Assembly: GCA_964531785.1 (NCBI GenBank)
Contig: CAZHFF010000001.1
Span: forward strand, 229,997-293,996
Direction of reading: 5' to 3'
DNA length: 64,000 nucleotides
Source of the DNA: an uncultured Candidatus Saccharibacteria bacterium
Lineage (GTDB): Bacteria > Patescibacteriota > Minisyncoccia > Phycocordibacterales > UBA12088
The position numbers and the translations under genes were made by a program. The notes beneath the pieces were generated by a model. That model had not been told where the DNA came from and did not search any database. It saw only the letters and a list, made by a program, of their open reading frames with translations. This document shows, in pieces, positions 13,690 to 48,695 of the stretch (its first letter is position 1; every line of letters starts with the position of its first letter).

Positions 13690-13718
13690 TTGACAGTGAA
13701 CACTCGTTCACCTACACT
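13690..13718 (+). promoter_or_regulatory. Sigma-70-type promoter TTGACA-N17-TACACT with embedded LexA (Cheo-type) box
   Basis: -35 at 13690-13695 and -10 at 13713-13718. The spacer contains the palindrome GTGAAC-ACTC-GTTCAC (13696-13711), which fits GAAC-N4-GTTC. Confidence 0.65.
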
Positions 13719-13746
13719 GAGGACATACCAGATAACAGCCGGGCGT

Positions 13747-14022
13747 ATGAGCAAGAACACCCTAACCAAAGAGATCATCCGTGAGCTTGAAAAGCTCAAT
13801 GACACGATCGATCGCAAGATCATCAAGGGGCTTTCCTACAAAACGGAGGCAAAACGCCATCGCGAGCTCACCGAAACCCTGCACCGGATCCGTGCGGAAA
13901 GCGAAGACGAACTGCTCGCGCACGCGGCGCACCGGTCAGGTCGTCGGGGCAAGAGTCCGGTGCGGAGAGAGCTTGCCGGGGGTGTCGTACGCAGGTTGTT
14001 CGGCTTCAGTCTCGCAGTATAG
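13747..14022 (+). CDS. Hypothetical small protein, first gene behind the SOS promoter
   Basis: ATG at 13747 lies downstream of the predicted TSS. Coiled-coil-like N-terminus, basic and hydrophobic C-terminus. Confidence 0.5.
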   Translation: MSKNTLTKEIIRELEKLNDTIDRKIIKGLSYKTEAKRHRELTETLHRIRAESEDELLAHAAHRSGRRGKSPVRRELAGGVVRRLFGFSLAV

Positions 14023-14074
14023 TGAGCTGCTCAGGCCGGCTTCCGATTTCCGCGCACTAAAAACATTCTTCAGC

Positions 14075-14527
14075 ATGTCGCACGAAACAAAGTTCAAGAT
14101 CATCGCGTCCGTCTATCTCGTGCTCGAGCGAGATGAGAAGAAGCTATTGATCCGTCGGTTCAGGACCGGTTTTGAAGACGGTAAGTATGCATTGGCCGCA
14201 GGGCATGTTGATGGTAATGAGACCATGCGCGAAGCACTGGTGAGGGAGGTCCGCGAGGAGATAGGTATTGAGCTTACTGTCGATGAGCTGGAGCTTGTCC
14301 ACACCATGCACCGCTTTTGCGGTGATCATGAGCGCGTAGATCTGTTCTTTAAAACGCGGGACTGGGAAGGGGAGCCTTGCAATATGGAACCGGAAAAATG
14401 TGATGACGTGCACTGGTTTCCTAACGACGCTCTGCCTGAGAATCTGGTGCAGTATGTCCGCGTTGCGCTCGGTCACATAGATGCGGGTGTGCAATACAGT
14501 GAGTTCGGATGGAGTTTGAATAGGTGA
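14075..14527 (+). CDS. NUDIX hydrolase (MutT-like)
   Basis: Nudix box GHVDGNETMREALVREVREEIGIE. Confidence 0.85.
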   Translation: MSHETKFKIIASVYLVLERDEKKLLIRRFRTGFEDGKYALAAGHVDGNETMREALVREVREEIGIELTVDELELVHTMHRFCGDHERVDLFFKTRDWEGEPCNMEPEKCDDVHWFPNDALPENLVQYVRVALGHIDAGVQYSEFGWSLNR

Positions 14528-14530
14528 CAT

Positions 14531-15100
14531 ATGGAACACTACAAAAAACAGCTCTACACCTTCTATCACACGCATCGTCGCATGCCCGGCTACAGCGAGA
14601 TGTGCGAGCTCTTCGGGTTCGCTTCGAAGAACGCGGTCGCCAAGGTGGTCGACAAGTTGGTCGATGCCGGGGTGATACACAAAGATGCAAAGGGAAAGCT
14701 GCTCCCGCTTTCGCTCGGCGACGAGGTGCCGCTTTTGGGGTATGTTGAGGCTGGCTTTCCGTCCCCTGCCGAGGAGATGGCGCTCGACAGGATCACGATG
14801 ACCGACCTCTTGCTCGACACCAAAGACCCGGTTTACCTCTTGCGCGTGAAGGGCGACTCCATGATCGACGCGGGTATCTTTGAGGGTGACCTCCTACTGG
14901 TGGAGCGTACCGAGCACGTTCGGGTCGGGGACATCGTGGTCGCGAACATGGACGGTGAGTGGACCGTGAAATACCTCCGGGAAAAGCGTGGCCGTCGCTA
15001 CCTAGAGCCTGCAAATGAGGACTATCCCGACCTATATCCTGAACACTCTTTAGAGATAGGGGGTGTGGTAAGGAATGTCATACGGACGTACAGAAAATAA
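14531..15100 (+). CDS. lexA: LexA repressor
   Basis: Winged-helix N-terminus, cleavage site VEAGFPSP, S24 catalytic GDSM and VKYL. Confidence 0.9.
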   Translation: MEHYKKQLYTFYHTHRRMPGYSEMCELFGFASKNAVAKVVDKLVDAGVIHKDAKGKLLPLSLGDEVPLLGYVEAGFPSPAEEMALDRITMTDLLLDTKDPVYLLRVKGDSMIDAGIFEGDLLLVERTEHVRVGDIVVANMDGEWTVKYLREKRGRRYLEPANEDYPDLYPEHSLEIGGVVRNVIRTYRK

Positions 15101-15548
15101 TTCAAAAGGCAAAAATCAAAATGCAAAATTACAGTTCAAATGTAAAAAGTGATCTACGCCAACGCTGCTATTCATTTAGTTTATCGATCATTAAGGTTGT
15201 TGACGGGTTGCCTAGCAAGAGAGCGGCGTGGGTGATAGCAGATCAGCTTATCAGGTCCTCCACATCTGTTGGGGCAAATTTAGTAGAAGGTAAATCAGCA
15301 AGTTCGCGACTCGAGTTCAAGAAGTTTTATGAGATCGCCCTTAAATCAGCAAATGAAACAAAATACTGGCTCTCTTTGTTAAAAGATGCAGGTTTATGTG
15401 ATCGTTCGCACGTTGAGCCGCTGATGAGCGAAATCGTAGAGATTAGTAACATGTTAGCAAGTGGAGTCATTAAACTTAAGCAGAAGGTGTGACTTTTTAC
15501 TTTTGCCTTGTATTTTTGACCTTTGCATTTTGAGTTTTGACTTCTAGC
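15101..15548 (+). mobile_element. AT-rich inverted-repeat-bounded unit carrying the four-helix-bundle gene
   Basis: Left arm 15101-15150 pairs with right arm 15492-15548: TCAAAATGCAAA with TTTGCATTTTGA, and GTAAAAAGT with ACTTTTTAC. The interior is visibly AT-richer than the flanks. Confidence 0.4.
15121..15492 (+). CDS. Four-helix-bundle protein (23S rRNA intervening-sequence protein / Avd-like family)
   Basis: Family hallmarks SFSLSIIKVVDGLP, SVGANLVEG and YEIALKSANETKYWLSLL. Confidence 0.9.
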   Translation: MQNYSSNVKSDLRQRCYSFSLSIIKVVDGLPSKRAAWVIADQLIRSSTSVGANLVEGKSASSRLEFKKFYEIALKSANETKYWLSLLKDAGLCDRSHVEPLMSEIVEISNMLASGVIKLKQKV

Positions 15549-15582
15549 ATAGGCTTAGACTTACTACTTTCTACTCTTTACT

Positions 15583-17037
15583 ATGCAAATAGACCCATCA
15601 ACCCCACTTGTCTTCATCGACCTGGAGACCACAGGCACGAGTCCTCGCCATCATCGAGTGATCGAGGTCGGTATCGTGCGTGTTGAAGAAGGGGAGGCGG
15701 TGAAGGAGTATAAAACACTTTTGAACCCAGGCGAGCTGGTGCCCGCGTTCGTTGCTTCGCTCACCGGCATCTCTACGGCGATGCTCCAGGGCGCACCACA
15801 GTTCGAGGACGTTGCCCTGGAGATCGCAGAGCTGCTCGAAGGAGCACTTTTTGTTGCGCATAATGCGCCATTCGATTACGGCTTTTTGGGAGCAGAGTTC
15901 CGTCGTATCGGCATGTCGTTCTCGTATCCGTACCTTTGCACAGCGAAACTCTCACGTGAACTGTATCCGGAGCACAGGCACCATAACCTTGATACGATCA
16001 TAGAACGCTATAGTCTCCAAGCGGGCGATAGGCACCGTGCTCTTGATGATGCAAAGGTGTTGCACCAGCTGTTGGGTGTCATGAGGAAGGAGCTCGGTGA
16101 TGAGCGAGTGTTCGAGGTGTGTCAGAACATGGTGCGTGTGCGCAACCTTCCGCTTCATATACAGGAGGAACAGGTAGCGCGCCTTCCGGAGCTTTGTGGT
16201 GTGTACTTTTTCTATGGAAAAAACGATGAGCTGTTGTACGTTGGCAAGAGCAGGAGAATACGCACCAGGGTTCGCTCCCATTTCTCTGCCGATGCGCTCT
16301 CCGGTAGGGGTCGTGACATGCTTTCCGAGATACGGCGCATCGAATACAAGGTAACGGCCGGTGAGCTCGGCGCGCTCTTGCTTGAGTCGCACCTCATCAA
16401 AACACAGTTGCCGGTATACAACGTGCGCGAACGGGAACGCAAGGCACTCTGTCTGGCGCGTGAACACACTGATGCCACAGGATATAGTCGTATCGCCATC
16501 GAGTACGCAGACACGATTGAACGCGGTGAGGAGGCAAGTATCGCAGCTGTTTTCAAAAGCAAGCGACAAGCAAAGGAAGTACTCGGACAGCTTGCAAAGG
16601 ACCATACCCTCTGCCCGACGCTTCTTGGTCTTGAGAAGCCTACTACTGAGAAGGCGCCATGTTTTAGCGCTCAGCTTGAGCAGTGTCAAGGTGCCTGTGC
16701 CGGAGTAGAGAAATCTCGCCATTATAACAAGCGTTTTCGATCAGCATTTTCACACCACCGTATAAAGGCATGGCCATTTGCGGGGCCAGTCGCTATCGAG
16801 GAAAAGAACCTCGACGGCTCGGGTGAGCTTTTTGTGGTCGATAACTGGCGTTTGCTCACCGCGCTCCATCTTGAGGACGGTGAATGGCAAGAGTTCGTTC
16901 CTGCGCGATTCCGGTTTGACTACGATGCCTACAAGATATTTTCGCGTGAGCTGTTACGCAGGAAACCTAAGGTACAGGTACGCGAGTTAACGTCTGTTGA
17001 ACAAGCTTGGTTAGAAGGAGCGAGCACTCCCCTATAA
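15583..17037 (+). CDS. DnaQ-type 3'-5' exonuclease fused to a GIY-YIG/UvrC-N-like nuclease (Cho / Rv2191-like)
   Basis: DEDDh motifs FIDLETTG, AHNAPFDYGFL and HRALDDA. GIY-YIG motifs GVYFFY..LLYVGKS..R.RV.SHF. Confidence 0.85.
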   Translation: MQIDPSTPLVFIDLETTGTSPRHHRVIEVGIVRVEEGEAVKEYKTLLNPGELVPAFVASLTGISTAMLQGAPQFEDVALEIAELLEGALFVAHNAPFDYGFLGAEFRRIGMSFSYPYLCTAKLSRELYPEHRHHNLDTIIERYSLQAGDRHRALDDAKVLHQLLGVMRKELGDERVFEVCQNMVRVRNLPLHIQEEQVARLPELCGVYFFYGKNDELLYVGKSRRIRTRVRSHFSADALSGRGRDMLSEIRRIEYKVTAGELGALLLESHLIKTQLPVYNVRERERKALCLAREHTDATGYSRIAIEYADTIERGEEASIAAVFKSKRQAKEVLGQLAKDHTLCPTLLGLEKPTTEKAPCFSAQLEQCQGACAGVEKSRHYNKRFRSAFSHHRIKAWPFAGPVAIEEKNLDGSGELFVVDNWRLLTALHLEDGEWQEFVPARFRFDYDAYKIFSRELLRRKPKVQVRELTSVEQAWLEGASTPL

Positions 17038-17044
17038 GTCACCT

Positions 17045-17157
17045 GTCAAATGTTTAAAGTCAAATGTACAAGTAAAAGATCAAAAAATTATCTGTTAGTG
17101 ATAGACATTTTGTTTGAAATATACTTTTGACCTCTGACCTTTAATCTTTGAAGTTCT
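17045..17157. repeat. Cargo-less member of the AT-rich inverted-repeat family
   Basis: Left arm GTCAAATGTTTAAAGTCAAATGTACAAGTAAAAGATCAAAAAA. Right arm CATTTTGTTTGAAATATACTTTTGACCTCTGACCTTTAATCTTTGAAGTTC. It abuts the ATG at 17158. Confidence 0.55.
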
Positions 17158-17553
17158 ATGAAGCCCGTCTCATTCATTCGCACCGCGCCAACTGCACTGG
17201 GGGAGGTCAAGAGTGACGCAGGGTACAGGAACCCGCTTTCACTTGACGCGCTGTTGGTGAGTCATCCAACCTCGACGTTCTTTGTTCGTGTCGGGAATGA
17301 TGTGGACGAAGCAGGTGAAGGTTTAGGTGTCGTTGCAGGAGATTTGCTCATTGTGGACCGATCTGTTTTGCCAACACTTGGCAGGCTGGTGCTTGCAGTG
17401 GTTGAGGGGCAACTTGTGCTGCGTCGTTACACAGAACATGAATCTCGTCGGTTTCTTGTTTCTGGAACACCAAAGCCACAGTCTATCGAGCTTACAGACG
17501 AACATAACGTAGTGCTTTGGGGTGTGGTGACTGCAACGGTTCGGCACGTCTGA
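17158..17553 (+). CDS. UmuD-like S24-fold protein lacking the Ser/Lys catalytic dyad
   Basis: Collinear with UmuD and the LexA C-terminal domain (LLVSHPTSTFFVRV..GDLLIVD..VLAVVEG). GDSMIDAG is replaced by GNDVDEAG, and the TVK(K/Y)L lysine by VLRRY. Confidence 0.75.
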   Translation: MKPVSFIRTAPTALGEVKSDAGYRNPLSLDALLVSHPTSTFFVRVGNDVDEAGEGLGVVAGDLLIVDRSVLPTLGRLVLAVVEGQLVLRRYTEHESRRFLVSGTPKPQSIELTDEHNVVLWGVVTATVRHV

Positions 17554-17612
17554 TTTTGCAAATTAGTAGCCTGATCTATGCTAGTTGTGAGTATGTGCTA
17601 TCGTACAATACC

Positions 17613-18080
17613 ATGAAATGGAAGACGCCACCGACCATAAAGATATATGAAGCGCTTGGTGCGATCAGTGACGGGCGTGTCGAGGTTGAGGGGAACGTTG
17701 CCAAGGTCTATTCATCAAGTCGAGGTAAGTACTACGACGTAACCTATGACCCGGTTGCAGGCGCTATCATGGCGAATGACAACGGGTCGTACTGGAAAGG
17801 GTACCTAGGCTACCCGTCGATTGCGTTGCTTATGCTCAAGCAAGTCCTACCTTACGACCTCAGTGTCGCGATGTTGCTCAAAGATATTCCCTGGAAAGAT
17901 ATTAACCAGAAGCATAAGAACAATTTTGATAAAACGTTGTCGTATGTGCTTGGGGCGGTTCTGCACAGGGGAGGGAATGTGCAAGATCTTGAGCGATACG
18001 TGGAGGATATCAAACAACGGGTACAGGCACTGGAGCTCTCACATTTAGGGCCGAGAGCACAGCCGCCGGAGGGATATTGA
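17613..18080 (+). CDS. Hypothetical protein between umuD-like and umuC
   Basis: 155-aa ORF starting MKWKTPPTIKIYE, with a TGCTATCGT box just upstream. No motif recognised. Confidence 0.5.
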   Translation: MKWKTPPTIKIYEALGAISDGRVEVEGNVAKVYSSSRGKYYDVTYDPVAGAIMANDNGSYWKGYLGYPSIALLMLKQVLPYDLSVAMLLKDIPWKDINQKHKNNFDKTLSYVLGAVLHRGGNVQDLERYVEDIKQRVQALELSHLGPRAQPPEGY

Positions 18081-18351
18081 CGCATGGGCGGCTTATAGTA
18101 CGTGGGTACGCATGATGTCAAGAACTGCATCATGAGTACAATGTGTCATCTCATGCTGGTTCTTCGAAACGAAAGAAGCAGGATGCACCGTGCCTCGGTT
18201 GTGAGTAGCACGCAAAGGGCAGATTGGTCTGTTTGCCAGCCTGCCCCTCATGACTCGAGCACCCACGTCATAGGACTTATGGTCGAACCGAATGTGGCGC
18301 TTGAGGCAAAGACCATTGCGGCTGTAGGTCTGCCCAAAATTCTTGCCCCCC

Positions 18352-19878
18352 ATGCTGTCACCCATCACGCTCATCGACTGCAACAACTTTTTTGTAAGCT
18401 GCGAGCGGCTTTTTCGCCCTGATTTGGTAGGACGGCCAGTCGTTGTGCTCTCCAGTAATGACGGGTGTGTGATATCGCGGAGTGAAGAGGCAAAAGCACT
18501 TGGTGTTAAAATGGGTGAACCGTACTTCAAGGTGAAGGACGCGTGCATGAAGCATGGGGTCACGGTCTTTTCCTCGAACTTTGACCTCTACCGCGACCTT
18601 TCGCGTCGTGTCATGCATACGCTACGCAGTTTCTCTGACGATGTTGAGGTGTACTCTGTGGACGAAGCCTTTCTAACCAGAACATCTCTGAAGGCCCCAT
18701 CTGCTTTGTCGCCTTCGTCGTGCGGACTCTCACCGTACTCACAGTACGACTCGAGTCCCCACTCCTCGGCGCCTTGCATCTGGGGTCTTGATAGATGTTC
18801 TGGCGGTGGGTGTACAAAGCACGAGATGTGTGAACTATATGCTTGGGGTCAGCTTATCCGCAGCACTGTGTTTCGTGAAGTAGGTATACCGGTCTCGGTC
18901 GGCATTGCTCCCACAAAGACGCTTGCAAAGGCTGCCACGTACTTTGCCAAACACGCCTCGCGGGCGTATGGGAATGGGGAACGACGAAGTATGGGGGGCG
19001 AGTATGAGAATGAGGCAACGGTTCCGCATACGAACTCCGCATACGAAACTCAGAGCCACGCTCCGTATACGAACACGCTCTGCACACAAGGCGTATGCGT
19101 ATTCATGGACGAGGCGGCACGCACACAAGCCCTCAACATCTTGCCCATTGAAGAGGTTTGGGGAGTGGGGTTCCGCCTTGCCCCAAAGCTTGTTGCGTTA
19201 GGTGTCGATACAGCAGGGAAGCTCGCGGCAATGAACGATGCGTGGATCCATAAAAAGATGAGCATACGGGGCTTGCGCACCGTAGAAGAGCTTCGAGGCA
19301 AGCGGTGCTACAAGATCGGCGAAGATACGGAGCTTAGGAAGTCGCTCCTCCATTCGCAGTCGTTCGGTAGGCCTGTCAAAGACCTACCGGCTCTACGTGC
19401 CGCGGTCGCATACCATGCACGCAAGGTTGCTGAGACCCTGCGTGCCGAGCGTGCCGCAGCTCGGAGCGTTCACGTGACCGTGCGTACCTCGCGCCATGGG
19501 CAAGTGCGGTACGCTGCTGGTGATATGGATATTTTACCTGCACACACGAACAGTACGTTCGAGCTTGTATCCCAAGCGCTTGCCGTGCTCACGCGCATCT
19601 ACCGTCAAGGTTTCCCGTATGCAAAGGCTGGTGTCATGGTGACCGATATCGTTCCGGAGGGCGCGGTACATCCGGTGACATTGTTCGGTGCTGTTCCGGG
19701 TGACGTGCAGCCCCTGATGAAGGCATGGGACGAACTGCGTCACCGCTATGGACCCAACGTGGTGCGTTTGGGTGTCGAAGGCAAGCAGACCGCCTGGGCG
19801 GCTCGCCACGGGCTGCTTTCGCCTCGATACACCACGGACTGGAAGGAGATAGTGATGGTGCAGAAAGTTAAAAGTTAA
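18352..19878 (+). CDS. umuC: Y-family DNA polymerase, UmuC type
   Basis: Collinear with E. coli UmuC: IDCNNFFVSCERLFRPDL..VVVLSSNDGCVISRS.EAKALGVKMG, SVDEAF, and C-terminal LSPRYTT. Two low-complexity insertions. Confidence 0.9.
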   Translation: MLSPITLIDCNNFFVSCERLFRPDLVGRPVVVLSSNDGCVISRSEEAKALGVKMGEPYFKVKDACMKHGVTVFSSNFDLYRDLSRRVMHTLRSFSDDVEVYSVDEAFLTRTSLKAPSALSPSSCGLSPYSQYDSSPHSSAPCIWGLDRCSGGGCTKHEMCELYAWGQLIRSTVFREVGIPVSVGIAPTKTLAKAATYFAKHASRAYGNGERRSMGGEYENEATVPHTNSAYETQSHAPYTNTLCTQGVCVFMDEAARTQALNILPIEEVWGVGFRLAPKLVALGVDTAGKLAAMNDAWIHKKMSIRGLRTVEELRGKRCYKIGEDTELRKSLLHSQSFGRPVKDLPALRAAVAYHARKVAETLRAERAAARSVHVTVRTSRHGQVRYAAGDMDILPAHTNSTFELVSQALAVLTRIYRQGFPYAKAGVMVTDIVPEGAVHPVTLFGAVPGDVQPLMKAWDELRHRYGPNVVRLGVEGKQTAWAARHGLLSPRYTTDWKEIVMVQKVKS

Positions 19879-20020
19879 AAGGCAAAGGTCAAAAGTGTCC
19901 TACGTTCTAGAACCAGCGAATGCAGGGTTGAATTTACCGAAGTAATCGTTGACATATAGAATAGGATATGTTTAGTAGCATCAGAATTTGCGCATCTAGG
20001 GACTTGGGAAGGGTAATTGA

Positions 20021-20335
20021 ATGAATGCACAAGTCGGTATCAGGATGTTTTTCGGCCTCATGTTTGTCGTCGTGCTCGCAGGTTGCGAGGAGTTGACAAG
20101 TACAGAGGATAACAGGGACGCGTGTTCCATTGTTAATTATGGCCAGGGGGTCTTATATTTCTCCTGCACCCGAGACATGTTCGCCAGAACACTGGCGAAG
20201 TGGAGAGAGGAAAATCCCTGTGCCATCAGCGCTGTCACCGGCAACGGAACAGGTGGCGCCGGTTATGACCAGGGATACTTTATATTCCTTGAGTCAACAA
20301 CATGTTCCTTGGGCTCGGAACTTGGGAAAAGGTAG
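20021..20335 (+). CDS. Small lipoprotein, hypothetical
   Basis: Signal peptide with lipobox VLAG|C, six Cys residues, AT-richer codons than neighbouring genes. Confidence 0.6.
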   Translation: MNAQVGIRMFFGLMFVVVLAGCEELTSTEDNRDACSIVNYGQGVLYFSCTRDMFARTLAKWREENPCAISAVTGNGTGGAGYDQGYFIFLESTTCSLGSELGKR

Positions 20336-20356
20336 GCGACCGCTACTATCGATAAG

Positions 20357-20382
20357 GCGACGCGCTCACCCGCGTCGTTTTT
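20357..20382 (+). terminator. Rho-independent terminator
   Basis: CGACGCG-N6-CGCGTCG followed by TTTTTT. Confidence 0.7.
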
Positions 20383-20508
20383 TCTTTTTAAAAAACGGAT
20401 CCTTCCCATTCTTACCTGCACTTTTGCATTTTGCATTTTGACTTTTGAACTTTGAATTTTTCATGTATTTCCATCTTCCTTTCTGTATCCCCACATACCC
20501 TCGATATT

Positions 20509-20517
20509 TGCTATACT
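20509..20517 (+). promoter_or_regulatory. Extended -10 TGCTATACT, 7 nt before ATG 20525 (leaderless)
   Basis: TGnTATACT, then gcgtcct, then ATG. Confidence 0.55.
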
Positions 20518-20524
20518 GCGTCCT

Positions 20525-21364
20525 ATGATTCGTGCGAGCGTGGTGTTGCTGTTGGCGGGCTTTTTTATGTGGGCCCCGTGGATGGATACCACCAGCGGGC
20601 GTACCTCGGTTGATCGGGCGCTTGAAGCGTTCGGGCCGGTTCCCTCCAATTGTTTCGACAGTGACGGGAATGAACTGCAGAACGGACTTGCGACCCGTTG
20701 GTACCCGCTCGGGCGACTAATACATGCGTGCAATGGCGATTATGTGGTCTGGTTTTGGGGAGCGGTCAAGGAAATGGGAGGTGTCTACAAGAAGGCAGAC
20801 GATATCCATGCAAAGCAGGCAAAGCCCCTCAGCTGTCAGAACGTGATCGACCGCCAAGAGGCGCGTCGTGCAACGAGCACTGACGCGACCGTGGTCGTCT
20901 TCGAGGGCCCGTTCGCGACCGAGCCCGATTTCTCGCTCCATCCTGAGGCGCGGGAACACCGCTCAAAGCTCGTCGCGGCGTTGCGCACCGGACCTAACTT
21001 CGCAGGTGCGTTCACCGTCGTTTCATGGGAATGCGGTCAGAATTGCCAAGACCATGCGGTCATGAACTCAGCCACTGGTCAGGTCATAGCCTATGGTCCT
21101 AAAACCGAGTTCTCGCTCGATTACAGCCTCAATAGTACACTCCTCATCACTAACCCGGTCAAGAACCTGCCGGCTCTGAGCGACAGTAACTACGAAGCAG
21201 AGACCATGGCACTCTCGATCGCGCGCTTGCCACGCGAGTACTACCGCCTCACCTCGGACGCGCTGTCGGGGACACAGTACCTGGTCAAGCTTTGCGTTGA
21301 GAGTGCTGCGATCGGGTACATCGCTGTTGCGGACGATCGTATCGGATTAGTGGAGCGGCAGTAG
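20525..21364 (+). CDS. Hypothetical secreted/membrane-anchored protein
   Basis: N-terminal hydrophobic helix. No recognised motif. Confidence 0.6.
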   Translation: MIRASVVLLLAGFFMWAPWMDTTSGRTSVDRALEAFGPVPSNCFDSDGNELQNGLATRWYPLGRLIHACNGDYVVWFWGAVKEMGGVYKKADDIHAKQAKPLSCQNVIDRQEARRATSTDATVVVFEGPFATEPDFSLHPEAREHRSKLVAALRTGPNFAGAFTVVSWECGQNCQDHAVMNSATGQVIAYGPKTEFSLDYSLNSTLLITNPVKNLPALSDSNYEAETMALSIARLPREYYRLTSDALSGTQYLVKLCVESAAIGYIAVADDRIGLVERQ

Positions 21365-21399
21365 CTCGAAATGACCGTTTTGCATCAAGGGACACCTCT

Positions 21400-21408
21400 T
21401 GCTAGCAT
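21400..21408 (+). promoter_or_regulatory. Extended -10 TGCTAGCAT, 6 nt before ATG 21415 (leaderless)
   Basis: TGnTAGCAT, then gtcggt, then ATG. Confidence 0.5.
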
Positions 21409-21414
21409 GTCGGT

Positions 21415-21888
21415 ATGCTCGCTGTAGGTGATCAGGTGCCGCGTGAACTGCGCATGACCGACGAGAACGGTACAGTAGGTACGCTAGGCGACTTGGCCGG
21501 CTCATACCTGGTCGTGTACTTCTATCCGAAGGATCTGACCCCGGGCTGCACTGTCGAAGCAGAGCAGTTTCGAGATGCGCTCCCGCAGCTCGAGGCACTG
21601 AACGCCAAGGTGTTAGGGGTCAGCAAGGATAGCTGCCAGAGCCACATGAAGTTCAAGGAAAAGAAGGGTCTCACGTTCACGCTTGTTGCGGACACGGAGC
21701 ATGAGCTCATGGAGGCGTTCGGCGTTTGGGGAGAACGGAAGTTCATGGGCCGGACGTATATGGGCACCTCACGCTCGACGTTCCTCATTAGCCCGGAAGG
21801 AGTAGTGCTCCATGTGTGGGAAAAGGTGAATCCGCTAGGGCACGCGGAAGACGTGCTGACCGTGCTACGTGCGCAGCGAACCGTGTAG
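21415..21888 (+). CDS. bcp: Thioredoxin-dependent peroxiredoxin (Bcp type)
   Basis: YFYPKDLTPGCTVEA peroxidatic-Cys motif and AhpC/TSA fold length. Confidence 0.9.
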   Translation: MLAVGDQVPRELRMTDENGTVGTLGDLAGSYLVVYFYPKDLTPGCTVEAEQFRDALPQLEALNAKVLGVSKDSCQSHMKFKEKKGLTFTLVADTEHELMEAFGVWGERKFMGRTYMGTSRSTFLISPEGVVLHVWEKVNPLGHAEDVLTVLRAQRTV

Positions 21889-37617: not shown

Positions 37618-37651
37618 CATGTAAGCGAAGCGATCCCTGAGCCAACAGGAG

Positions 37652-37700
37652 CTTAGCTTCCGGGTCCCTAAGTGCCTATTTTAGGGACCCGGAAGCTAAG
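37652..37700. repeat. Palindromic element copy 1 (CTTAGCTTCCGGGTCCCTAA-N9-TTAGGGACCCGGAAGCTAAG)
   Basis: 20-bp perfect arms and a 9-nt loop. The core is shared with copies at 45542, 47816 and 48149. Confidence 0.85.
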
Positions 37701-45394: not shown

Positions 45395-45541
45395 GTGTCC
45401 GTCCTTCTGTTGTTTACCTAATCCAGCACTATACAACGGCCGTCGGTTTGCGCTAGGGGAGGGTGGTGCAGAACAAAGCATGGCTCATTTTCGTGTCAGT
45501 AGGGCAGGGTGCATACTATTGATCTTCTCCTATCTCCCTGC

Positions 45542-45596
45542 TCCTCAGCTTCCGGGTCCCTAAGTGAAGAACACTTAGGGACCCGGAAGCTGAGGA
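45542..45596. repeat. Palindromic element copy 2 (CCTCAGCTTCCGGGTCCCTAAGTG-AAGAA-CACTTAGGGACCCGGAAGCTGAGG)
   Basis: 24-25-bp perfect arms and a 5-nt loop AAGAA. Confidence 0.9.
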
Positions 45597-47764: not shown

Positions 47765-47815
47765 TCTTGCACTGGTGTACCTCATGAGTTTGGCACACCA
47801 GGTAACCGTCATGTA

Positions 47816-47860
47816 GCTTCCGGGTCCCTAAGTGTTCTTCACTTAGGGACCCGGAAGCTG
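47816..47860. repeat. Palindromic element copy 3 (AGCTTCCGGGTCCCTAAGTG-TTCTT-CACTTAGGGACCCGGAAGCT)
   Basis: 20-bp perfect arms. The loop TTCTT is the complement of the copy-2 loop, and the right flank GAGGATG matches copy 2. Confidence 0.9.
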
Positions 47861-47885
47861 AGGATGGATACCGATAGAGAAAAGC

Positions 47886-48133: not shown

Positions 48134-48148
48134 GTTGGCTGCAGGTTG

Positions 48149-48197
48149 TTAGCTTCCGGGTCCCTAAGTGTTCTTCACTTAGGGACTCGGAAGCTAA
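48149..48197. repeat. Palindromic element copy 4 (TTAGCTTCCGGGTCCCTAAGTG-TTCTT-CACTTAGGGACTCGGAAGCTAA)
   Basis: 22-bp arms with one mismatch (C to T at 48187). Confidence 0.85.
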
Positions 48198-48695
48198 CCG
48201 TGTGCAGGATGGGGAGTGGGGTGCGGTGGTGTGGGGTGTGGGTGGCGTATGTGAGCGATGACCGTACGTTCGGCAAACGATGGTCCTGCGCGGGTGGAAC
48301 GGACATGGATGAAATGCATCGCCTGCGGTCGTGTTCGAGCTTGTGTTACCTGCACATCCTATAAGACGTAAAAGACAGCTGTAGACGCACCCCTCTTGTC
48401 CTTATCTTTGCAGGTTATCCACGTTGCACAACCCTGCCGTGTGGGCTGATGCTTACTCATGAAGAAGCACAGCACGAGTTGTGTCGTGGCTTCAGAAATA
48501 GTCAACCTGAAAAGCAACGGGAAACTGCTTTCCGGTGGTTACCAGCTAAAGATCGCAAGCAGTATGCGACAAGGCCTCGACCATGCGCAGAGCAGCACCC
48601 ACAAACGCCATGCGTGACACGTAGAGGCTTTTTGCGTTTGCGGCTTCATGCGTAGACCCCTTATCAATTTACCTTACCAACGTAGCAGTATCACT

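Follow-up and report, generated by a model that had tools for sequence, protein, structure and literature searches.

A lipobox-protein gene of foreign composition between heptamer arms at the umuC stop codon of a Saccharibacteria genome

Intervening sequences (IVSs) of 23S rRNA are small inserts with complementary ends. In the parts of PMC4990558 on which our comparison rests, and through which we cite Ralph and McClelland 1993, the IVS in helix 45 of Coxiella burnetii has a 28-bp stem, is excised by RNase III, and has a GC content below that of its host. Here, we describe unit 3, an inverted-repeat unit (positions 19864-20462) in a 64,000-nucleotide window (G000:C1:229997-293996) of an uncultured Candidatus Saccharibacteria bacterium (GCA_964531785.1, contig CAZHFF010000001.1; the assembly, G000, is 1.1 Mb and 86% complete). 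Unit 3 encloses the gene of a 104-amino-acid (aa) lipobox protein between two arms made of heptamers. As far as the cited account goes, the IVSs of C. burnetii, Leptospira, and Salmonella resemble unit 3 in being small, AT-richer inserts of sporadic occurrence whose complementary ends could form a long stem. They resemble another unit of the window, unit 1, in that the loop carries a small open reading frame (ORF) of the S23p/PF05635 family (IVP gene). Unlike the IVSs, which lie in rRNA, unit 3 lies between protein genes and has heptamer-array arms. Its ORF also differs, since it encodes a lipobox protein rather than a PF05635 protein and is equipped with a promoter-like site and a terminator of its own.

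The IVP-bearing armed units of this genus share the architecture of unit 3, its arm consensus, and its exact placement between one gene's stop codon and the following gene. Unit 3 differs from them in that its left inner heptamers are missing and its cargo belongs to a family that is otherwise arm-less. We found no title or abstract in the literature that described an IVP gene in heptamer arms outside rRNA, and heptamer-armed four-helix-bundle units seem to be undescribed there. Heptamer arrays as such have been reported. In Nostoc, TTTTGAA repeats are argued to modulate recF and recO expression (preprint, bioRxiv 10.1101/2022.06.06.494920), and in Beggiatoaceae, TAACTGA repeats upstream of starts are proposed translation regulators (PMC4679880). 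In the portions of these two sources that we used, the arrays are like our arms in being tandem 7-nt units near start codons, and the Nostoc word is nearly identical. Unlike unit 3, they are direct arrays, are read as regulators, and are not linked there to inverted partners or enclosed genes.

On balance, the reading we favor sees in unit 3 the decayed form of an IVP-type hairpin element, located at the umuC stop codon, in which a self-contained foreign gene took the place of the core. Its arms would belong to a hairpin family that in this genus normally surrounds an IVP gene or nothing, and a horizontally acquired gene with its promoter, Shine-Dalgarno (SD)-like site, and terminator would have replaced or entered the original core. 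Because the six evaluated loci of the gene's homologs lack arms, the arms would be the insertion site and not the vehicle. The arms would have come first and the cargo later, because homology between G000 and its sister species G001 stops at about 19851, 13 nt ahead of the left arm (the umuC tails diverge beyond this point), and because G001 has a gene-less repeat at its own umuC stop codon. The gene probably landed by recombination at an AT-rich, hairpin-prone, fast-changing spacer. It is most likely transcribed from its own predicted promoter, and the transcript would end at its own predicted terminator before the right arm. With the terminator ahead of the right arm, the arms would play no part in expression of the lipobox gene, and arm-arm pairing would be unlikely to matter.

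The arms of unit 3 are complementary well above chance, as had been claimed when the DNA was read without database searches (the sequence-only reading). Tandem Repeats Finder (TRF) called period 7 in both arms. A repeat search found 82% complementarity over 28 nt with 521 nt between the arms, and the best inverted repeat in the 600-nt flanks of the lipobox ORF scored 37, compared with a shuffle maximum of 23. The complementary 8-mers CAAAAGTG and CACTTTTG are the exact inner ends of the left and right arms; the 8-mer by itself is not rare (4 matches versus 1.7 expected; at least 4 in 8 of 100 shuffles). We found that the RNA duplex of the two arms has an energy of -31.6 kcal/mol, which was reached by 0 of 500 shuffled right arms and by 2 of 2,000 random 51-nt pieces of the window, and that the minimum free energy (MFE) RNA fold of 19850-20480 closes on the arms (z -5.9). 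Unit 3 lies right at a gene boundary, its left arm overlapping the upstream stop codon as the sequence-only reading had noted. The arms are asymmetric: the left one has lost its inner heptamers, and the right one, which in reverse complement keeps the family motif GCAAAAGTGCAGG, has them in degenerate form after this motif. No target-site duplication was seen around unit 3, and a direct repeat flanking the lipobox ORF (CTAGGGACTTGGGAA and CTCGGAACTTGGGAA) was set aside as being at chance level by estimate.

Unit 3 is one member of an arm family in G000. A word-cluster scan of the genome found 18 strong arrays, compared with 0 to 2 in 20 shuffles. About 14 pairs of an A-type arm followed by a T-type arm were found: 11 are gene-less (35 to 240 nt between arms), 2 carry PF05635 (unit 1 and a unit on contig C14), and 1 is unit 3, which makes it the only one of the ~14 with a non-IVP gene cargo. 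At least five further arms had no detectable partner. That unit 3 is the third of its kind in the window also held, the others being unit 1 and the gene-less unit 2, which forms only a weak hairpin as single-stranded DNA (z -0.15). We then searched for an inverted partner within 3 kb of 342 period-7-type TRF arrays. Among pairs with more than 300 nt between arms, the top scores belonged to the C14 unit (50), unit 1 (39), and unit 3 (35 to 37). A score of 39 on contig C7 was rejected as noise, coming from a GC-rich coding repeat (65% GC). The next scores (31 to 30) came from gene-less arm pairs and one cross-unit pairing, and unrelated pairs scored 29 or less. The arm consensus common to G000 and G001 consists of four outer heptamers, GTRCARG, and two inner heptamers, and the arms of unit 3 show 85 to 87% complementarity to those of other units. 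The arm motif AAAANNACAGNNYAAA was specific to G000 (6 hits versus 0 to 3 in 25 genomes of the family, close to control counts). A PF05635 fragment (E 8e-5, N-terminal third) lies at G000:C2:180846-180965 between GspF-like and pilin genes; it has no recognizable arms and is probably a decayed unit.

The left junction of unit 3 recalls an IVP-bearing unit. In such units, the start codon lies inside the arm, and GTGAYCTACGSC follows the arm and encodes K-S-D-L-R of the IVP N terminus. The left arm of unit 3 lacks two inner heptamers at its junction AAAAGTGTCCTACGT, which we compared with the arm-to-ORF junctions of the IVP-bearing units, AAAAGTGACCTACGG in G001 and AAAAGTGATCTACGC in unit 1. Judging from this nucleotide junction alone, it is probably a remnant of an IVP 5' end.

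The interior of unit 3 differs in composition from the genome. Its 518 bp (19898-20415) have a GC content of 48.1%, compared with a genome mean of 57.3% (standard deviation, 4.1), which places it at the 3.6th percentile of the 518-nt windows of the genome. Both the AT-rich interior of the sequence-only reading and the discontinuity in the GC profile that it suggested looking for are thus present. Contigs C7, C13, and C17 were excluded from these statistics; they have 64 to 67% GC versus 50 to 59% in the other G000 contigs and may be another organism's. The same reading had proposed a TTGACA promoter. We found the hexamer but no good -10 at 16 to 18 nt from it, and our scan, which found 3 sites in the region versus 0.9 expected, favors the overlapping site TTTACC-18-TAGAAT. 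Its 104-aa protein with the lipobox VLAG|C is confirmed as an ORF, and its T-run terminator is recovered as a predicted hairpin. The lipobox ORF had the best codon score of six frames, above 98% of off-frame chunks, but reached only the 3rd percentile of real-gene chunks, similar to the IVP gene. We concluded that the lipobox gene is real and compositionally foreign.

The lipobox protein has relatives, although it appeared to be an orphan at first. A word-indexed search returned the query alone, and 0 of 60 relatives had the gene by a single-protein comparison; a full HMMER search overturned this, finding 151 proteins at E<=1e-3 including the query and 7 at E<=1e-10. The members are mostly 80 to 125 aa long (about 95 aa). 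The lipobox occupies residues 18 to 22 after a signal peptide, and in an alignment of 40 homologs, Cys22 is nearly invariant and YGxGVYYF, F(A/G)NxLS, and TGNGTGxYGxDxGYFV are conserved. The match to PF08139 (E 0.025) falls under the cut-off of that family, and the protein is without a Pfam or NCBIfam family. An AlphaFold (AF2) model made with the alignment had a predicted local distance difference test (pLDDT) score of 86 (core, 93 to 96) and shows a signal helix followed by a beta-beta-alpha-beta-beta domain; the core of a single-sequence model already had a pLDDT of 75 to 80. Foldseek found no match in the PDB at E<=0.001 with the single-sequence model. A wide VIA-align search with the good model gave best Z scores of 4.9 (ACT domain) and 4.7 (PilO core), in the range of common small alpha/beta arrangements, and in the protein atlas the best score, 0.80, was to unnamed clusters only. 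Within Patescibacteria, the family has a patchy distribution, which also speaks for a foreign origin of the gene: at E<=1e-3, 6 of the 401 evenly sampled phylum genomes had a hit (weak in three cases), and at E<=1e-5, 11 of 401 genomes sampled from the class did, G000 being counted in both. Searches for Lgt (PF01790) and LspA/signal peptidase II (PF01252) were negative in G000 (86% complete), G001 (93%), and G497 (100%), three genomes that nonetheless encode such lipobox proteins; of 5 tested genomes with lipobox homologs, 3 gave hits. The protein may therefore be unlipidated in its present host, the G000 assembly of which is 86% complete.

To see how this gene sits elsewhere, we examined seven strong homolog loci, one of which (L066) was dropped because its contig ends at the gene. 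The six evaluable loci (G330, G110, G497, G617, G686, and G578) come from five genera, G497 and G617 being of one genus; of the weaker loci (L060 to L062 and L068 to L072), all but L060 were left outside the evaluation. None of the six had arms, the best flanking inverted repeats scoring 20 to 26 versus shuffle maxima of 24 to 27, and the best at L060 scored 22. The homologs lie at unrelated sites, one apparently after the end of a tRNA gene. By eye, TTGACA or TTGACT lies upstream in five of the six, with a TAnnAT-like box 17 to 18 nt after it in four of these five; locus L059 has CTTGACC only. GC-rich hairpins followed by T-runs lie downstream of the homologs (also by eye). Near-identical terminator hairpins (..GCCGC.. 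GGGCGGTTTTTTAGTA) lie on both sides of the G330 homolog (L058 1380-1860, G330:C1), a layout that looks as though insertion had duplicated the terminator upstream.

Phage morons are self-contained extra genes with their own promoter and terminator. The lipobox gene and its homologs are like them in being single small genes at differing sites between unrelated genes and, by eye, in having a TTGACA or TTGACT hexamer upstream and a terminator-like hairpin downstream at five of the six homolog loci. Unlike morons, they were seen in no prophage context, and the insertion site in unit 3 is a repeat element.

The sister species shows armed units at the same genes. At the same umuC stop codon, the gene-less inverted repeat of G001 is made up of two in-register segments of 19 and 17 nt (79 to 82%) that are 157 to 191 nt apart, and it shows a weak AAGACAA period. 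A further unit of G001, situated between umuD and umuC, combines outer arms of 79 nt (73%) with inner CAAAAG-type arms of 34 nt (85%). We found that these arms enclose an 86-aa lipobox ORF, a predicted terminator, and a promoter-like site, TTGACA-18-TAAATT (10/12, with TG). The 86-aa protein is unrelated to the unit 3 protein (E 1.3), and a word-indexed search with it returned only itself, although the same type of search had missed the homologs of the unit 3 protein. The 20 sampled regions of G001 contained 13 pairs without a gene, 2 IVP units, and about 9 arms that are unpaired. Upstream of umuD in G001 (L045 9640-10240, G001:C6), we also observed a direct duplication of ~75 nt, made up of a T-arm and the first seven umuD codons (MKSVSFI). 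The ORF between the two copies is 122 aa long and has an HELVH motif and a match to eCIS_core (PF13699).

Within its own population, unit 3 is stable. Contigs from another study are near-identical at both junctions, with 1 difference in 19658-19991 and 1 in 20234-20500. The second of these contigs, which comes from an independent sludge sample, also has a right arm that is one heptamer short (7 nt at 20422; 20422-20428). We concluded that the arms change by whole heptamers.

Several points weigh against replacement of an IVP core by a foreign gene. The state before replacement, an IVP-bearing or empty element at umuC beside the 279-aa gene that follows unit 3, was found in no genome. None of the six interior ORFs or frames matched PF05635 at E<=10 in Pfam. 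The 15-nt junction match is short and partly repeat-like, the promoter and terminator of the lipobox gene are predictions, and the homolog sample is small (six loci, two of one genus). The second, unrelated lipobox gene within G001 arms hints that capture is perhaps more than an accident. Nonetheless, the data fit a foreign gene that landed in or replaced an IVP-type core better than they fit an element that shuttles cargo.

Such a shuttling element is the alternative that survives best, and it is close to what the sequence-only reading had argued for as a cassette-type element. The arms would then be a nonautonomous element holding any small gene, served in trans by IVP copies much as miniature inverted-repeat transposable elements (MITEs) are, with the lipobox gene as a passenger. 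We consider this unlikely. The part of the earlier claim that stands is that unrelated contents occur in one arm family: the same arm consensus surrounds IVP genes, nothing, and the unit 3 gene; another arm-bounded unrelated cargo, such as the earlier reading had suggested looking for, exists in G001 between umuD and umuC; an intact IVP gene lies 4.4 kb from unit 3; and the SOS locus has a cluster of armed units in each of the two species. The part that does not stand is the arms as a general vehicle for this gene. Arms were present at 0 of 6 homolog loci, the lipobox gene comes with a promoter-like site and a terminator of its own, the left junction is of the IVP type, and unit 3 is a single occurrence in G000. 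Pairing is also not specific to a unit: the left arm of unit 3 pairs with the right arm of unit 1 at -36.0 kcal/mol (U3L-U1R) and with that of unit 2 at -30.3 (U2R-U3L), compared with -31.6 for its own partner (U3L-U3R). In four sequencing runs, we found no joint, empty-site, or excised form, a weak point as the search covered contigs only, at low depth.

No recombinase or transposase was found linked to the arms. Integron cassettes are like unit 3 in having imperfect inverted repeats able to fold as single strands and in placing unrelated small genes at one kind of site. We rejected an integron cassette because unit 3 has arms on both sides rather than one attC, has its own promoter-like site, and has no integrase nearby; the only two PF00589 matches in G000 are on other contigs (C10 and C13). 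REPIN/RAYT systems and MITEs are like the arm family in being scattered through intergenic spacers as short palindromic copies without genes. They were rejected because the RAYT-like gene is both flanked and interrupted by the palindrome AGCTTCCGGGTCCCTAAGTG and not by heptamer arms. This gene, the only Y1_Tnp/RAYT-like gene of G000, is on contig C8 (G000:C8:23295-24150; PF01797, E 3e-6). The palindrome (AGCTTCCGGGTCCCTAAGTG/CACTTAGGGACCCGGAAGCT) occurs four times in the window (37646-37674, 45538-45596, 47806-47864, and 48142-48207). From sequence, the C8 gene and the palindrome look like a REP (repetitive extragenic palindromic)/RAYT pair, a second repeat family unrelated to the arms.

Somewhat less probable still is that unit 3 is a recombinant hybrid, in which a left half-element at the umuC stop codon was joined to a right half upstream of the 279-aa gene, with the lipobox gene as a resident. 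The gene order around unit 3 speaks for it. The 279-aa gene is placed elsewhere relative to umuC in 11 genomes of the genera g6 and g1; in the six g6 genomes that have both genes, these share a strand and the 279-aa gene precedes umuC by 2 to 6 kb, and in g6 the 279-aa gene follows an SppA-like gene. In G001, umuC and the 279-aa gene are on different contigs. Because the order of these two genes differs in g6, unit 3 lies at a rearrangement junction. Also in favor of a hybrid are the inverted repeat after umuC in G001 together with a separate CTACTCG-type heptamer array in front of its 279-aa homolog, the interchangeable pairing of arms, the asymmetry of the unit 3 arms, and the commonness of arms with no detectable partner. 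A scan of relatives' loci found no CAAAAG-type arrays near umuC or the 279-aa homologs. Against a hybrid, both arrays of unit 3 end in register with complementary 8-mers at their inner ends, and a resident lipobox gene was found at either parent site in 0 of 60 relatives. We also looked for decayed inner arms in the flanks of the interior and found none, all scores being at or below shuffle means; the lack of any trace speaks against an origin from two distinct elements, both missing their inner halves.

That the arrays are instead regulatory or RNA-processing signals, the T-array serving the 279-aa gene at its promoter or 5' end and the A-array serving umuC at its 3' end, with the enclosed gene incidental, is improbable: placement favors it (an ATG lies 5 to 13 nt past the T-array in six gene-less pairs, by eye; the unit 2 arm ends at the umuD ATG; several units have an A-arm that overlaps with or adjoins the preceding stop codon; and G001 has arrays at the same relative places with other heptamer sequences), as do the Nostoc and Beggiatoaceae precedents, so far as these sources were used, and the arm-paired MFE fold, but the arrays are inverted pairs around a specific gene family that are gained and lost between sister species, the predicted terminator between the unit 3 arms means that one transcript would rarely hold both, the right arm stops 63 nt before the 279-aa start and upstream of its -10-like box, an array of this kind is absent from ten g6 orthologs of the 279-aa gene, and 14500-21500 had no Rfam family match at E<=1. 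The sequence-only reading had likewise argued against a gene-specific regulatory repeat, and this was borne out, since the same arms enclose a PF05635 gene, nothing, or the lipobox gene.

Returning to a foreign gene in an IVP-type core, we found that armed units cluster at the SOS locus (exonuclease-GIY-YIG/umuD/umuC), at 13690-20462 in G000 and at G001:C6:9700-16430. This locus holds 3 of the ~14 pairs of G000 in 5.4 kb and six paired units of G001 in 6.7 kb. In G000 and G001 alike, genes have inserted repeatedly and independently into the armed umuDC spacers. We hold with little confidence the further idea that arms without an IVP gene are still recognized, by an IVP protein or a host hairpin-processing enzyme, and capture foreign genes, which would make them a transposase-free capture site at operon boundaries with umuDC as a hot spot in both species.

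The features of unit 3 and its neighbors are collected in Table 1. The umuC product has the domains PF00817, PF11799, and PF13438. In G000 (511 aa) and G001 (519 aa), it has an extra, poorly conserved stretch of ~90 aa at roughly residues 113 to 250; the UmuC proteins of relatives are 422 to 464 aa long, and their matches split around this stretch. The umuD-umuC spacer of G000 (17554-18342) has 50.1% GC (6th percentile) and a 155- to 187-aa ORF with no Pfam or NCBIfam match, and it has no arms.

Table 1. Coordinates of unit 3, its contents, and neighboring features in the window
Feature	Position	Strand	Remarks
Unit 1	15099..15543	+	IVP gene PF05635/TIGR02436 (E 3e-26 and E 8e-29); ATG 15112 inside A arm
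Unit 2	17040..17157	+	Gene-less arm pair ending at the umuD start codon
Left (A-type) arm AAAGTTAAAAGTTAAAAGGCAAAGGTCAAAAGTG	19864..19897	+	About five CAAAAGN-type heptamers; last codons and stop of umuC
umuC stop codon TAA	19876-19878	+	Within left arm; umuC ORF 18343..19878
Inner junction AAAAGTGTCCTACGT	19891..19905	+	13/15 match to arm-to-IVP-ORF junction
Promoter-like site TTTACC-18-TAGAAT	19933..19962	+	Prediction, 9/12 consensus matches; overlaps TTGACA 19949-19954
SD-like site GGGAAGGG			Between promoter-like site and lipobox ORF
Lipobox protein ORF, 104 aa, Cys22	20021..20335	+	ORF list, homologs, model, codon score
Intrinsic-terminator-like hairpin and T-run	20354..20391	+	Predicted; 11-bp stem 20354-20381, 6 GC pairs
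Right (T-type) arm CACTTTTGCATTTTGCATTTTGACTTTTGAACTTTGAATTTTT	20419-20461; from 20415 including preceding CCTG	+	
279-aa gene, no Pfam match	20525..21364	+	Own -10-like TATACT box just upstream

Unit 3 brings into view an unnamed family of small secreted proteins that has a confident fold and moves between ultra-small bacteria. The hosts of this family include genomes where no lipoprotein-maturation genes were found. Among bacteria, heptamer-armed units that carry a four-helix-bundle gene are common. As a core-swapped unit, unit 3 indicates that the arms persist recognizably without an IVP gene and that such spacers accept foreign DNA, and it makes the question of whether the arms are a carrier or a target concretely testable.

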